Origin: Escherichia coli
GTDB taxonomy: Bacteria > Pseudomonadota > Gammaproteobacteria > Enterobacterales > Enterobacteriaceae
Length of the DNA stretch: 64,000 nt
Assembly: GCF_013315695.1 (NCBI RefSeq)
Contig: NZ_CP054353.1
Strand: one strand, 5' to 3'
Positions 14,203 to 41,026 of the stretch are shown here, piece after piece. How positions within the stretch are numbered: the stretch's first letter is position 1; each line of letters begins with the position of its first letter. Made by a program: the position numbers and the translations under genes. Under the pieces are notes generated by a model, which was not told the DNA's origin, ran no database searches, and was given only the letters and a program-made list of their open reading frames with translations.

Positions 14203-15345
14203 ATGAAAATTGTCATTGCGCCAGACTCGTTTAAAGAGAGCTTAAGTGCAGAAAAATGTTGTCAGGCAATTAAAGCCGGGTTTTCGACCCTCTTTCCCGA
14301 TGCGCACTATATCTGTTTGCCGATAGCGGATGGCGGCGAAGGAACGGTGGATGCGATGGTCGCCGCGACGGGCGGCAACATCGTGACGCTTGAAGTCTGC
14401 GGGCCGATGGGCGAAACAGTGAATGCTTTTTATGGCCTTACCGGCGACGGGAAAACGGCGGTGATTGAGATGGCTGCGGCAAGCGGCCTGATGCTGGTCG
14501 CGCCTGAAAAGCGTAATCCGTTGCTGGCCTCCAGTTTTGGTACGGGGGAGTTAATTCGCCATGCGCTGGATAACGGCATTCGCCATATTATTCTCGGCAT
14601 TGGCGGCAGTGCGACGGTCGACGGCGGTATGGGCATGGCGCAGGCGCTCGGTGTGCGTTTCCTTGATGCCGACGGTCAGGTGCTGGCGGCTAACGGCGGC
14701 AATTTAGCGCGCGTGGCAAGCATTGAGATGAATGAATGCGATCCGCGTCTGGCGAACTGTCATATTGAAGTCGCATGTGACGTTGATAACCCGCTGGTAG
14801 GGGCACGCGGCGCGGCGGCGGTGTTTGGCCCGCAAAAAGGGGCAACGCCGGAGATGGTCGAAGAACTGGAACAGGGGCTGCAAAATTACGCCCGTGTTTT
14901 ACAACAGCTAACTGAAATCAACGTCTGCCAGATGGCGGGCGGTGGCGCGGCGGGCGGTATGGGCATTGCGGCGGAGGTATTCCTCAATGCGGATATTAAA
15001 CCGGGTATTGAGATTGTGTTGAATGCGGTCAATCTTGCGCAGGCGGTGCAGGGTGCAGCACTGGTGATCACCGGGGAAGGGCGCATCGATTCGCAAACGG
15101 CAGGTGGTAAAGCGCCGCTGGGCGTGGCGTCGGTGGCGAAGCAGTTTAATGTCCCGGTGATTGGGATTGCTGGCGTATTGGGTGATGGCGTGGAAGTGGT
15201 GCACCAGTACGGCATTGACGCGGTGTTCAGCATTTTGCCACGTCTGGCACCTTTAGCCGAAGTGCTCGCCAGCGGTGAAACCAATCTCTTCAACAGCGCA
15301 CGAAATATTGCCTGCGCCGGTGATGCTGCCAACTTACTGATTTAG
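14203..15345 (+). CDS. glxK: glycerate kinase; last codons and stop lie inside the IS1 left inverted repeat
   Basis: About 380 aa; ORF continues across the IS1 boundary at 15319 (…[10 protein letters not shown]). Confidence 0.75.
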
Positions 15346-15373
15346 TGTATGATGGTGTTTTTGAGGTGCTCCA

Positions 15374-15649
15374 GTGGCTTCTGTTTCTATCAGCTGTCCC
15401 TCCTGTTCAGCTACTGACGGGGTGGTGCGTAACGGCAAAAGCACCGCCGGACATCAGCGCTATCTCTGCTCTCACTGCCGTAAAACATGGCAACTGCAGT
15501 TCACTTACACCGCTTCTCAACCCGGTACGCACCAGAAAATCATTGATATGGCCATGAATGGCGTTGGATGCCGGGCAACAGCCCGCATTATGGGCGTTGG
15601 CCTCAACACGATTTTACGTCACTTAAAAAACTCAGGCCGCAGTCGGTAA
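15374..15649 (+). CDS. insA: IS1 InsA
   Basis: 91 aa zinc-finger/HTH protein, identical in both copies. Confidence 0.9.
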
Positions 15650-16071
15650 CCTCGCGCATACAGCCGGGCAGTGACGTCATCGTCTGCGCGGAAATGGACG
15701 AACAGTGGGGCTATGTCGGGGCTAAATCGCGCCAGCGCTGGCTGTTTTACGCGTATGACAGGCTCCGGAAGACGGTTGTTGCGCACGTATTCGGTGAACG
15801 CACTATGGCGACGCTGGGGCGTCTTATGAGCCTGCTGTCACCCTTTGACGTGGTGATATGGATGACGGATGGCTGGCCGCTGTATGAATCCCGCCTGAAG
15901 GGAAAGCTGCACGTAATCAGCAAGCGATATACGCAGCGAATTGAGCGGCATAACCTGAATCTGAGGCAGCACCTGGCACGGCTGGGACGGAAGTCGCTGT
16001 CGTTCTCAAAATCGGTGGAGCTGCATGACAAAGTCATCGGGCATTATCTGAACATAAAACACTATCAATAA
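15568..16071 (+). CDS. insB: IS1 InsB (transposase C-part, made as InsAB' by -1 frameshift)
   Basis: 167 aa ORF overlapping insA in the -1 frame. Confidence 0.85.
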
Positions 16072-16086
16072 GTTGGAGTCATTACC

Positions 16087-35825: not shown

Positions 35826-36187
35826 TATGCTCCAGCCTCCGGTGCTTTTGGCATTACTGCCCAGTGAGTGATATTGACGTTTTCAAGGTCCCCGACCTGA
35901 AATGTCCACTGCCATTCTCCGGTTTCTTTTTGTCCCCAGGTGTACCAGAGAGAACGCCAGCCAATCAGCCAGCCTTCTCCATTAGCATCAAATAACAGAA
36001 CACTTTCATTTGCTGGTGGCAGTTCAGCTGACACTGGTATTATTTTGTTTTCCAGTGCCGCACATTTAGCTTCAAGCGCGTCGAATTTACGTAACAGGTA
36101 CTCAGCATTTGTTTCATTCACTTTCAGATCTCGCGGTACACATTTCCCGCGAAGAAACCCTTCCATTTCGAAAACATTCATGCGCAT
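35825..36187 (-). CDS. DUF551-like prophage protein (120 aa)
   Basis: Trp-rich C-terminus ending …THWAVMPKAPE; coupled to neighbours. Confidence 0.45.
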   Translation of the reverse strand: MRMNVFEMEGFLRGKCVPRDLKVNETNAEYLLRKFDALEAKCAALENKIIPVSAELPPANESVLLFDANGEGWLIGWRSLWYTWGQKETGEWQWTFQVGDLENVNITHWAVMPKAPEAGA

Positions 36188-36741
36188 TTGCGTAACTCCG
36201 ATAAATCGTTAAAACGTTCCATAAACATCCCGTAGGCATGACCCGGTGCCAGTGGAATCACGTTGAACATCTCTGTTGCCGGGATGCCTTCCAGTACAGG
36301 CCAGAAAGAGCCATCATCAAGCCCGAGATCGCGGCGTTCGGTTGCCAGCATGATGAGATCGGCATATTTCACGGGTGTACTCATAACTGGGGGTAACCCG
36401 TATTTCTCACGGATTACGGCGTCTATTTTTTCTTCCATCCGTTTATAGTCAGGAAGAAGGCGTTTCAGTGGTGCGGGAATGTCCTGGCAATACGCTTCTG
36501 TTGCATCATGCATTAACGCTTCAAAAGCAAATTCCTGCGGCACCAGCTGGCTGCAAAGAACCGCATGTTGGGCGACGCTGTAGAAGTGCGAAAGATGACC
36601 GGCAAAGCGACAGATATTTGAAAGGGAAACCGCGATATCGTTAATATCGATGTCGTCTTTATTTATCTTGTCATAATAAAAATGCTTCCCGGAAAAAGTT
36701 TTAATAAATGACATTTTGTTCTCCACGTATATGCACTGCAC
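36178..36741 (-). CDS. HD-domain phosphohydrolase (YfbR-like 5'-nucleotidase family)
   Basis: H…HD metal-binding signature (…SVAQHAVL… ; …ALMHDATEAY…). Confidence 0.6.
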   Translation of the reverse strand: MQCIYVENKMSFIKTFSGKHFYYDKINKDDIDINDIAVSLSNICRFAGHLSHFYSVAQHAVLCSQLVPQEFAFEALMHDATEAYCQDIPAPLKRLLPDYKRMEEKIDAVIREKYGLPPVMSTPVKYADLIMLATERRDLGLDDGSFWPVLEGIPATEMFNVIPLAPGHAYGMFMERFNDLSELRKCA

Positions 36742-36839
36742 CGCGCTGAATTCTGGTAAAAGGAAGCCCTCACCATCCGGTGATTATTGAGTTAATTACG
36801 TTTCCATAAATGCCCCCGCAGGGGCATTTGCAGTAATGA

Positions 36840-37041
36840 AATCAGGCGGTGAAAGTACCAATAAAGGTTTCTACTTTGCTGTCTTTGAATTTCTCAACAA
36901 GCAGATCACGAAATTCGTTAGCCATTTCTTCCTGCACCGCTTCCAGCTGAATAATGCGCAGAACCAGTACAGGACGATCGCCAGTGATAATGCTGAGGCG
37001 TAATTTAAACGGACGTTCTTTCAGACCTTCAAACGGAACGC
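36840..37041 (-). pseudogene. 3' fragment of a prophage early gene, truncated by IS1
   Basis: Minus-strand frame open from the IS1 boundary to a stop at 36840 (…[39 protein letters not shown]); no start codon. Confidence 0.45.
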
Positions 37042-37096
37042 GGTGATGCTGCCAACTTACTGATTTAGTGTATGATGGTGTTTTTGAGGTGCTCCA

Positions 37097-37372
37097 GTGG
37101 CTTCTGTTTCTATCAGCTGTCCCTCCTGTTCAGCTACTGACGGGGTGGTGCGTAACGGCAAAAGCACCGCCGGACATCAGCGCTATCTCTGCTCTCACTG
37201 CCGTAAAACATGGCAACTGCAGTTCACTTACACCGCTTCTCAACCCGGTACGCACCAGAAAATCATTGATATGGCCATGAATGGCGTTGGATGCCGGGCA
37301 ACAGCCCGCATTATGGGCGTTGGCCTCAACACGATTTTACGTCACTTAAAAAACTCAGGCCGCAGTCGGTAA
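37097..37372 (+). CDS. insA: IS1 InsA
   Basis: Identical to 15374..15649. Confidence 0.9.
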
Positions 37373-37794
37373 CCTCGCGCATACAGCCGGGCAGTGACGT
37401 CATCGTCTGCGCGGAAATGGACGAACAGTGGGGCTATGTCGGGGCTAAATCGCGCCAGCGCTGGCTGTTTTACGCGTATGACAGGCTCCGGAAGACGGTT
37501 GTTGCGCACGTATTCGGTGAACGCACTATGGCGACGCTGGGGCGTCTTATGAGCCTGCTGTCACCCTTTGACGTGGTGATATGGATGACGGATGGCTGGC
37601 CGCTGTATGAATCCCGCCTGAAGGGAAAGCTGCACGTAATCAGCAAGCGATATACGCAGCGAATTGAGCGGCATAACCTGAATCTGAGGCAGCACCTGGC
37701 ACGGCTGGGACGGAAGTCGCTGTCGTTCTCAAAATCGGTGGAGCTGCATGACAAAGTCATCGGGCATTATCTGAACATAAAACACTATCAATAA
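37291..37794 (+). CDS. insB: IS1 InsB
   Basis: Identical to 15568..16071. Confidence 0.85.
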
Positions 37795-37850
37795 GTTGGA
37801 GTCATTACCTTCTAATTGATATGCAATTGTTTACTAAAAGTTATTAAAAA

Positions 37851-37868
37851 TGGGGCGTGGAAACGCCC
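37851..37868 (-). terminator. hairpin GGGGCGTGGAAACGCCCC with flanking A/T runs, likely the porin terminator
   Basis: Perfect 7-bp GC stem; on the minus strand it is followed by a T-run. Confidence 0.4.
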
Positions 37869-38007
37869 CCAAAATAAAGGGTAATATATAACAGAAGGTT
37901 TATATAGTAAGAAGCAAGGTAGTGCTTCTAAAGGAAGTGGCTTGAGGGCTCCACTTATATGTTGCGGAGGCAAAGCCTCCCGCAACATATCTTTTTCGTA
38001 AGTCAGA

Positions 38008-39090
38008 TTAGAACTGATAAACCAGACCTACAGCGACGATGTCGTCGGTATCAATACCAGCTGTTTTGGTAAACTTACTATCGTCAATTAAGTTGATTTT
38101 GTAATCAACAAAAGTGGACATGTTTTTATTAAAGTAGTAAGTAGCACCGACATCGACATACTTGACTAAGTCTCGGTCACCATGAACACCAAGGTCTTTA
38201 CCTTTTGACTGAAGGTAAGCAACAGATGGACGCAGACCGAAGTCAAACTGATATTGTGCTACTGCTTCAAAGTTTTGTGCTTTGTTTGCAATATGGTTAT
38301 TACCAAAAACGGTCATATTCTGAGTTTCAGAATATGTGGTAGCCAGATAGATATTGTTCGCATCATATTTCAGGCCTGCAGCCCATACTTCCGCATTTTT
38401 GCCGGAGGCATTGAATTTGCTCTTACCATAGGCGACCTGACCGTCAGTGCGATCTGATTTAGCATAGGTTGCACCCACGCCGAATCCTTCATACTCATAA
38501 GTAGTGGAGAAACCGAAACCATCACCATTGGCTTCAGTTACGTCAGTGCGGTCATTTTTACCCTGATACTGAGCAGCAAAGTTCAGGCCATCGACCAGAC
38601 CAAAGAAGTCGTTGTTACGATAAGTTGCAACACCAGTAGTGCGACCAGTCATGAACACATCTGTTTGGGTCCAGGTATCACCACCGAATTCTGGCAGGAC
38701 GTCAGTCCACGCACCGATGTCGTATGCTACACCGTAGTTACGGCCGTAATCGATTGAGCCGTAATCACCAAATTTCAGGCCTGCAAATGCAAGACGGGTT
38801 TTGTCTTTGGAAGAACCTTGAGATTCAGCACGGTTGCCTTTGAATTCATATTCCCACTGACCGAAACCAGTCAGTTGATCGTTGATTTGGGTTTCACCTT
38901 TGAAGCCAAGACGGGCATAAGTAGTATCACCATCATCTGCATCATTAGAGGAGAAGTAGTGCTTGGCATTAACTTTCCCGTATAGATCCAGCTTGTTACT
39001 GTCTTTATTATAAATTTCAGCTGCCTGAGCAGACATCGCCATCAGTACTGATGCAGCTACAGCAGAAATTGCCACTGTTAATTTTTTCAT
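38008..39090 (-). CDS. nmpC: prophage-encoded OmpC/OmpF-family porin, apparently intact
   Basis: 360 aa from [23 protein letters not shown] signal peptide; C-terminal …VAVGLVYQF beta-barrel signature. Confidence 0.85.
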
Positions 39091-39516
39091 TGTACGCCCT
39101 TTTTTTGAACTATTATTAAAAAATGATGTCACTGCGCGATAAATATTCATCTAATCAATGCGATTATTTCAAGATGTAAGTTTTAGTTTCTCATTTAATT
39201 TGTGAAGTAGATCTCTATTTTTATCTAAACCTTTTCTATCTAATCCTATTCATGGCTCTTGTTTGAACGAAAATAAATCTATTAGCTAATTTATATTAAT
39301 GGCACTTATTTATAAGCGATCTATAATTCTTTAGCTTAATTTAAACAAGCTAAAAATAACATCGGAAATTATTCATTGGTTATTTGTTGAAGTTTTCTTA
39401 TGTATTTGTGGTGGTGTTTTGAACACTCGGTGGCATTCTCACAAATATCATTTAGTAGTTTACGTACGTAAAAAATTGGTTATGCTGTTAAGAGTGGTTA
39501 CTTCGTCACACAGCTT

Positions 39517-39549
39517 AAACCCGCCGTCGAGCGGGTTTTTCCATTTTTT
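39517..39549 (+). terminator. rho-independent terminator upstream of the holin (tR'-like)
   Basis: AAACCCGC-CGTCGA-GCGGGTTTTTCCATTTTTT; stem-loop plus U tract. Confidence 0.5.
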
Positions 39550-39678
39550 GAGTCTCGATATTAGCTGATAACCCAATACCTGAGTTATTCACTGACTCCG
39601 AATCTGTTACGTTTCTGCCTTTATTGCGATACGTAGTATCCCCTTAATTTACACCCGCTTTGTCTGCGAGGTGGGGTT

Positions 39679-39894
39679 ATGAAATCCATGGATAAGTTAA
39701 CAACGGGTGTCGCCTATGGCACCTCAGCAGGTAGTGCCGGATACTGGTTTTTACAGCTGCTAGATAAAGTCACGCCCTCACAGTGGGCGGCAATTGGAGT
39801 GCTGGGTAGCCTGGTATTTGGCCTGCTGACGTACCTGACAAACCTTTATTTCAAGATTAAAGAAGATAAGCGCAAGGCTGCGAGAGGTGGATAA
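39679..39894 (+). CDS. essD: class II holin (phage-21 S21-like pinholin)
   Basis: 71 aa, two TM segments ([26 protein letters not shown]…), charged C-terminus. Confidence 0.85.
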
Positions 39895-40391
39895 TGCCTC
39901 CATCATTACGAAAAGCTGTTGCTGCTGCTATTGGTGGCGGGGCTATTGCTATAGCATCTGTGTTAATCACTGGCCCAAGTGGTAACGATGGTCTGGAAGG
40001 TGTGAGACATAATCCTTACAAAGACATAGTTGGTGTATGGACTGTATGTTACGGGCATACAGGAAAAGACATCATTCCCGGTAAAACGTATACCGAAGCA
40101 GAGTGCAAAGCCCTCCTGAATAAAGACCTTGCCACTGTCGCCAGACAAATTAACCCGTACATCAAAGTCGATATACCGGAAACAACGCGCGGCGCTCTTT
40201 ACTCGTTCGTCTACAACGTGGGTGCTGGCAATTTCAGAACATCGACGCTTCTTCGCAAAATCAACCAGGGCGATATCAAAGGCGCATGTGACCAGCTACG
40301 TCGCTGGACATACGCTGGCGGTAAGCAATGGAAAGGGCTGATGACTCGCCGTGAGATTGAGCGTGAAGTCTGTTTGTGGGGGCAGCAATGA
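39894..40391 (+). CDS. rrrD: SAR endolysin (T4 lysozyme-type muramidase with N-terminal signal-anchor-release domain)
   Basis: 165 aa; Gly/Ala-rich SAR segment [20 protein letters not shown] followed by lysozyme fold. Confidence 0.85.
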
Positions 40392-40825
40392 GCAGGTTAA
40401 CCGCGATTATCTCCGCTCTGGTTATCTGCATCATCGTCTGTCTGTCATGGGCTGTTAATCATTACCGTGATAACGCCATTACCTATAAAGAACAGCGCGA
40501 TAAAGCCACGTACATCATCGCTGACATGCAGAAGCGTCAACGTGACGTAGCAGAACTCGATGCCAGATATACAAAGGAGCTTGCTGATGCTAACGCGACT
40601 ATCGAAAGTCTCCGTGCTGATGTTTCTGCTGGGCGTAAGCGCCTGCAAGTCGCCGCCACCTGTGCAAAGTCAACGACCGGAGCCAGCGGCATGGGCGATG
40701 GAGAAAGCCCAGGACTTACAGCAGATGCTGAACTCAATTATTACCGTCTCCGAAGTGGAATCGACAAGATAACCGCGCAGGTTAACTACCTGCAGGAATA
40801 CATCAGGACGCAATGCCTGAAATAA
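40376..40825 (+). CDS. rzpD: Rz-like i-spanin
   Basis: 149 aa; N-terminal TM then coiled coil; overlaps endolysin end. Confidence 0.8.
40560..40772 (+). CDS. rzoD: Rz1-like o-spanin lipoprotein embedded in the +1 frame of Rz
   Basis: Lipobox LLGVSAC followed by Pro-rich segment; fully nested in rzpD; true start probably an internal Met. Confidence 0.7.
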
Positions 40826-40886
40826 TTTTTTTGCAAATCACAAAGTCAATTTAATGAGCCTCGCGATGCGGGGCTTTTTGCAATAA

Positions 40887-40911
40887 ATGCGTACCGCAAC
40901 GCATGTTTTTT
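40887..40911 (+). terminator. weak terminator-like hairpin after the spanin genes
   Basis: ATGCGT-ACCGCA-ACGCAT followed by GTTTTTT. Confidence 0.3.
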
Positions 40912-41026
40912 ACACCGAACCTGCCCCTTTGGAATGGGCCTTTGAGGATACCAGTTAGTGCTGGCGAGCCTCGGTGGGCTGGTTTCCTGTGCGGCAAAGG
41001 TTCATTTCAAAGAGTAGGTACACGCT

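Follow-up and report, generated by a model that had tools for sequence, protein, structure and literature searches.

A probable lc/nmpC–ipeX moron in an IS1-truncated lambdoid prophage at argU of Escherichia coli

The porin gene analyzed here, together with the two hairpins that follow it, most probably represents the lc/nmpC–ipeX moron of a lambdoid prophage of the DLP12/PA-2 type with argU as its integration site, a reading to which we assign a probability of roughly 0.88. The window, that is, the whole stretch of DNA that was analyzed, comprises 64,000 nt of the Escherichia coli contig NZ_CP054353.1 (assembly GCF_013315695.1). Descriptions of the module, as lc in PA-2 and as nmpC in DLP12, go back to the 1980s, and IpeX followed in 2006. 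It was first sequenced in phage PA-2 (GenBank J02580), so the lc/nmpC module as such is not new. The additions made here are the identification of the hairpins as ipeX, the corrected position of the porin gene relative to pR′, and the IS1 truncation of the prophage. The features of the locus are collected in Table 1.

Table 1. Features of the porin locus and adjacent prophage regions (positions refer to the window).
Feature	Position	Strand	Description and evidence
IS1, 768 bp	37042..37809	+	InsA/InsB Pfam matches, junction sequences, comparison with the intact relative locus
quuD remnant (Q antiterminator gene), last 10 nt	37810..37819	+	Alignment with the intact relative and K-12; sole quuD remnant
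Distal hairpin/terminator of the porin–IpeX transcript	37843..37869	–	GGGGCGUUUCCACGCCCC then AUUUUUAAU; Rho-independent
ipeX homologue	37844..38010	–	Porin mRNA 3′ UTR, starting with the first nt of the stop codon
Proximal long hairpin	37957..37990	both	Stem of 15–16 bp with one bulge; 5′ stem-loop of IpeX on the minus strand
Porin CDS	38008..39090	–	360 aa plus stop; NmpC/Lc-type general diffusion porin
Porin signal peptide, 23 aa	39022..39090	–	Cleavage AQA/AE; same as the sig_peptide annotated in PA-2 J02580
Porin leader/promoter region	39091..39458	–	AT-rich, ~25% GC; aligns with PA-2
CRP-like site	39201–39216	–	TGTGAAGTAGATCTCT; equivalent to the proximal CRP site annotated in PA-2
Late promoter module pR′–qut–tR′	39459..39548	+	Homologous to the annotated VT1-Sakai/H-19B late promoter
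pR′ –35 box TTTACG	39459–39464	+	Alignment with VT1-Sakai
pR′ –10 box TATGCT	39481–39486	+	Alignment with VT1-Sakai
tR′ hairpin with T-run	39517–39538	+	Also found by the terminator scan; preceded by a qut-like segment
Lysis cassette essD (holin), rrrD (lysozyme), Rz-like spanin	39679..40825	+	Pfam Phage_holin_2_1, Phage_lysozyme, Phage_lysis; RefSeq annotation of the identical locus

The genes of the region follow each other in the order fimZ, tRNA-Arg (argU), intD, a few early-left genes, IS1 and the porin gene, after which come essD, rrrD, Rz, the terminase, head and tail genes, J, lom and the tail fibre. No target-site duplication accompanies the IS1 element, which directly borders the last 10 nt of quuD, and the entire interval from a truncated DUF2303 gene to quuD is missing from the window. 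Intact relatives have the immunity (repressor, cII), replication, nin and Q genes at this place. As the IS1-associated deletion has removed quuD and the entire early region, the prophage is defective, and it can neither be induced nor antiterminate its late operon. The porin–ipeX module and the complete late region are retained. Between int and IS1, a gene encoding a YfdR-like 5′-deoxynucleotidase (HD-domain) at 36178–36741 on the minus strand survives together with its early-left neighbours, yfdT among them. A second IS1 copy is present at 15319–16086, 21 kb from the copy at the prophage deletion; the two are 100% identical and have the same orientation, and recombination between them could delete the segment comprising the sfm/fim genes, argU and int.

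The porin reading frame opens with the ATG at 39090, contains neither an internal stop codon nor a frameshift, and is preceded by AAGGG approximately 7 nt 5′ of the ATG. Pfam Porin_1 (PF00267) matches residues 29–360 over profile positions 1–337 out of 337 (E = 1.9e-151), and solved OmpC structures align with residues 24–360 (E ~1e-137). The uninterrupted frame and the full-length domain match bear out the first-pass annotation, which had described an intact, full-length porin of 360 aa; the signal peptide and the terminal aromatic residue that it had named are likewise found. Cleavage of the 23-aa peptide leaves a mature protein with the N-terminus AEIYNKD, while the C-terminus reads VGLVYQF, ending in Phe with the beta-signal intact. 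In the alignment with K-12 OmpF, OmpC and PhoE, all eyelet residues (OmpF K16, R42, R82, D113, E117, and R132) are kept, and the motif PEFGG of the L3 constriction loop is present. Given approximately 66% identity to solved OmpC, the protein is expected to form a trimeric 16-stranded barrel. The earlier description of the gene as a prophage-borne porin of the nmpC type also agrees with our data, namely, 92% identity to Lc/NmpC, the canonical gene order, and the location of the prophage at argU.

An in-frame ATG at 39150 would yield a porin of 380 aa, with 20 additional residues (39091–39150, minus strand) before the signal peptide, and some pipelines do call this longer form. We prefer the start at 39090, as it matches both the annotated start and the 23-aa signal peptide of PA-2 lc, and the 380-aa form is probably a start-codon miscall.

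The two hairpins had been taken for the porin gene's own terminators, flanking it. Both exist, close to where they had been placed, but both are 3′ of the gene and within the 167-nt ipeX homologue; only the distal one has the form of a terminator on the porin strand, while the proximal one has its T-tract on the plus strand. The K-12 ipeX gene is given in the supplementary material of PMC8313858 as 574365–574531 on the reverse strand (167 nt). It starts with the first nucleotide of the nmpC stop codon, its 3′ end coincides with the distal terminator, and the alignment of K-12 574531..574365 with 38010..37844 of the window shows 94% identity over 168 columns. The folding energy of the ipeX region as RNA is –53.6 kcal/mol (z = –6.2). 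For the distal hairpin (37852–37869, of the form GGGGCG(N4–6)CGCCCC), the terminator scan and folding yield –13.8 kcal/mol on the minus strand. The proximal hairpin has approximately –22 kcal/mol on either strand (z about –4), and its surroundings differ between the strands: on the plus strand the stem is followed by the T-run CTTTTTCG, within the longer stretch CUUUUUCG, whereas AAGUGGAG, which lacks a U-tract, comes after it on the porin strand. As this U-tract is lacking on the porin strand, we regard the proximal hairpin as a structural element of IpeX on the minus strand; on the plus strand it may serve as a terminator facing the convergent, rightward transcript of Q.

Both stable hairpins sit 3′ of the porin gene, and a textbook terminator is formed on the porin strand by the distal one; nevertheless, the two are unlikely to be simple tandem terminators of this gene with no RNA function of their own. 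Such terminators would not account for the strand asymmetry of the proximal hairpin just described, nor for the fact that the entire 167-nt stretch matches an annotated sRNA; moreover, the ipeX region is 94–100% conserved across alleles, whereas the adjacent coding sequence differs by approximately 21%. The assignment of the region to ipeX also agrees with reviews, according to which IpeX is made from the phage porin promoter within the porin transcript, is then processed, and represses OmpC and OmpF; the action of IpeX is described in one review as not reliant on complementarity alone, and the sources disagree on its dependence on Hfq.

Two ipeX alleles are observed, one in the window, Perceval and MS 21-1, and the other in K-12, PA-2 and 434, whose copies are mutually identical. 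The alleles are eight substitutions and two indels apart, mostly in loops. As the window allele differs from the studied K-12/PA-2 allele, its activity is assumed. The ipeX alleles go together with the alleles of the porin 3′ half. The Rfam scan of positions 36000–41000 at E up to 1 returned no IpeX family, as Rfam has none; a match of sau-19 to the proximal hairpin was dismissed as a chance sub-threshold hit (23 bits versus the gathering score of 80). Annotation of ipeX is also absent from the RefSeq, phage and K-12 records that we compared. Being unannotated and having no Rfam family, ipeX is easily mistaken for plain terminators. One more candidate in this region, ORF1 of the PA-2 record, located on the plus strand over ipeX and the 3′ end of lc, is shorter than 40 aa in the window and was taken to be an old annotation artefact.

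The position of the late promoter changes the relation between the porin gene and the late operon. The gene had been described as antisense to this operon, and it is indeed encoded on the strand opposite to the lysis and structural genes, but it is not antisense to the late transcript: as pR′ is located between the porin and holin genes, the porin gene falls outside of the late transcript and is divergent from it, being convergent with Q. In a distant search with the porin–holin spacer, Stx phages match only over positions 39456–39540, and the VT1-Sakai annotation there comprises a putative late promoter, a Q-utilization site, and the Rho-independent terminator that comes first in the pR′ transcript. 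QuuD, the cognate type of Q, is 81% identical to the Q protein of VT1-Sakai. An alternative placement of pR′ in the spacer between Q and the porin gene, which would make the latter antisense to the late transcript, was excluded, since the homology to the VT1-Sakai pR′/qut/tR′ resumes at 39456, on the holin side. With the late promoter on this far side, the porin gene is insulated from late transcription; the essD–rrrD–Rz lysis cassette forms the beginning of the late operon. The pR′–qut–tR′ module is approximately 130 nt 5′ of the holin gene, and the terminated transcript predicted for it is a very short RNA of about 55 nt. The VT1-Sakai pR′ lies over the end of Q, whereas in the window approximately 1.65 kb, consisting of ipeX, the porin gene and its AT-rich upstream region, are inserted between Q and pR′, in the manner of a textbook moron.

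The porin allele was compared codon by codon with PA-2 lc as the reference, and its two parts differ strongly. Codons 1–150 contain just 9 nucleotide differences (~2%), while codons 151–360 contain 136 (~21%; ~79% identity). Of the codons that differ in this second part, 82 are synonymous and 28 non-synonymous; two indels are found there as well. The prevalence of synonymous over non-synonymous differences in the barrel-coding parts argues for purifying selection on the porin protein. Amino acid changes are found at OmpF-equivalent positions 164–169, 199–205, 241–250, 286–289, and 318–327, which we take to be surface loops L4–L8 in the OmpF topology (Cowan et al., 1992). The allele thus appears to be a mosaic with a conserved barrel and variable exposed loops. 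This combination is common in porins that act as phage receptors and antigens, and the loop variability of the present allele is not new in kind. Tentatively, and with more doubt than confidence, one may consider the loop-variant allele to be a distinct phage-porin surface type with its own ipeX allele, under diversifying or balancing selection by phages or immunity, and the locus to be a domesticated porin switch responsive to 37°C and CRP. If this were true, a porin switch residing in a remnant without Q and repressor would alter both antibiotic and phage susceptibility.

The region of about 370 bp 5′ of the porin gene is at least 88% conserved with PA-2 and K-12. In the PA-2 record, a CRP site is annotated approximately 110–130 nt 5′ of the start codon, and the CRP-like site of the window (Table 1) is its equivalent. 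Scanning of the entire window with the CRP consensus produced 197 matches versus 219 expected, that is, no excess over chance, and hence only the site at the position annotated in PA-2 is worth mentioning. The sigma-70 scan yielded no promoter for the porin gene on the minus strand; a TTGAAA/GAATAT pair near 39172–39143, relative to which the CRP site would be at about –72, was considered as a promoter and is not claimed. According to PMC8313858, which summarises K-12 expression compendia, ipeX RNA is less abundant in crp mutants, and more abundant in an hns mutant and when the carbon source is poor. Two prophage nmpC genes of CFT073 show a strong preference for 37°C, in mRNA as well as in protein. 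By analogy with these alleles, the porin promoter of the window appears to be cAMP-CRP-dependent and favoured at 37°C, and is probably restrained by H-NS.

Another possible level of regulation involves RybB, as nmpC mRNA has been reported among its targets. Positions 39071–39077 on the minus strand (+14 to +20 of the porin coding sequence) are perfectly complementary over 7 nt (CAGUGGC) to the 5′ RybB seed. This complement is only marginally better than shuffled controls (p ~0.045), and is a hint that would fit the reported targeting.

Expression of the gene in lysogens is suggested by data on identical and related alleles. The identical porin gene of Perceval, on record as a lysogen-expressed moron, reaches transcript levels 10-fold above the prophage background in LF82 lysogens, and the CFT073 copies, as noted above, yield protein at 37°C. 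Combined with the purifying selection seen in the comparison with PA-2 lc, and with the exact protein sequence being kept on at least 1000 public contigs, this leaves little room for a silent remnant, that is, a gene intact but unexpressed, passively carried in a decaying prophage with no host function. Several observations do fit such a remnant: the prophage is defective, its early region and Q having been deleted by IS1; the upstream region has 25% GC, a value typical of DNA silenced by H-NS; no minus-strand consensus promoter came out of the sigma-70 scan; and the title of Prilipov et al. (1998), as cited, describes nmpC of E. coli B^E as quiescent. We nevertheless consider silence improbable, and retain the reading of the locus as an lc/nmpC–ipeX moron with a probably expressed porin.

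The affiliation of the porin is further seen from sequence identities and from its distribution. Its identity is 91.9% with PA-2 Lc and, likewise, 91.9% with K-12 NmpC from which IS5 was removed in silico, and only 62.8–67.7% with K-12 OmpC, OmpF, PhoE, and OmpN. It coincides (100%) with PERCE_59 of phage Perceval and with RefSeq WP_000737271.1, the latter being labelled “porin OmpC”. The 1.9-kb module (37800–39700) is covered by at least 80% in 2464 out of 5426 complete E. coli genomes (~45%), and, at the same coverage, in 36 phage records, including PA-2, 434, Perceval, 4A7, ev017, and several ECOR-derived phages. The NCBIfam OmpC model scores the porin at 521 bits with a cut-off of 484, but this model has the rank of a “subfamily” and not of an equivalog, and the PGAP name “ompC” is best understood as a product of a subfamily-level HMM and not of orthology. 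The idea that the gene is the cell's OmpC or an OmpC paralogue and not a phage porin, suggested by this above-cut-off score and by the RefSeq name of the identical protein, is almost certainly wrong in view of the 65.9% identity to K-12 OmpC versus 91.9% to Lc/NmpC, the location between the Q-gene remnant and the holin gene in the argU prophage and not beside micF, the occurrence of the module in the 36 sequenced phages, and the mere subfamily rank of the model.

From the literature on identical or near-identical alleles, the following course of events can be proposed for the lc/nmpC–ipeX moron. In the lysogen, the porin gene's own promoter would drive its transcription without any link to phage development, and the exported porin would act as a general diffusion pore. 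IpeX would arise from the 3′ end of this transcript, and would lower OmpC and OmpF post-transcriptionally. The cell would thereby partly swap its major porins for the phage porin, with the outcome that the permeability and the antigenic surface are altered and the OmpC receptor is lost, which could lead to the exclusion of OmpC-dependent phages, e.g., PA-2 itself. Exclusion of such phages by Lc/IpeX is familiar from the older PA-2 literature. A role of the porin in lysogenic conversion or exclusion, as proposed in the first-pass annotation, is accordingly treated here as possible. As the immunity, replication and Q genes have been lost to the IS1-mediated deletion, the module now survives in a defective prophage, as a gene under host control.

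Strains carrying this locus possess one extra general porin and an sRNA able to depress OmpC and OmpF, and the label “ompC” coming from automated annotation can mislead analyses of porin loss and resistance. As a discovery, the locus carries little weight, as nearly one in two complete E. coli genomes contains the module.

Of the named systems, PA-2 Lc (gene lc in J02580) has the same place between Q and the lysis genes and the same orientation. Its signal peptide and first 98 residues are identical to those of the window porin, its upstream region is conserved with that of the window, including the annotated proximal CRP site, and an ipeX-type sequence is present downstream. The window porin is five residues shorter than PA-2 Lc, and the 29 substitutions and both indels that separate the two proteins are nearly all located in the predicted surface loops L4–L8; the ipeX allele of PA-2 differs from that of the window at eight positions and two indels.

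The DLP12 (qsr′) prophage of K-12 occupies the same attachment site (argU, intD), and its gene order quuD–ipeX–nmpC–pR′–essD–rrrD–rzpD corresponds to the arrangement in the window. However, K-12 nmpC is a pseudogene with IS5 inserted 58 nt before the stop codon, while the window porin gene is intact; on the contrary, DLP12 keeps quuD, which the window prophage has lost through IS1 along with the early region. Unlike DLP12, the window prophage still has the full lambda-like set of head and tail genes. K-12 IpeX likewise extends from the porin stop codon as far as the Rho-independent terminator, and shares the terminator stem and, as predicted, the overall fold, whereas the proximal stem is better paired in the window due to G replacing C in the 3′ arm. 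In phage 434B (OL657227.1, 199–2495), IS5 interrupts the same porin gene behind codon 346, just where it does in K-12 DLP12, and this shared IS5 site suggests that the Q–S–R region of laboratory phage 434 originates from the K-12 cryptic prophage.

Perceval from E. coli LF82 and the ECOR phages PhiR49_1, 4A7, and ev017 show 99.7–99.9% nucleotide identity over the entire module. These are complete inducible phages possessing Q and the immunity region, whereas the window prophage is truncated by IS1. The chromosomal porins OmpC, OmpF, PhoE, and OmpN belong to the same Pfam family, can be aligned with the window porin from end to end, and share with it the eyelet, the L3 motif PEFGG, and the C-terminal YQF; they differ in being controlled by OmpR- or PhoB-dependent promoters, while the window porin gene has its own CRP-linked upstream region and resides in a prophage.
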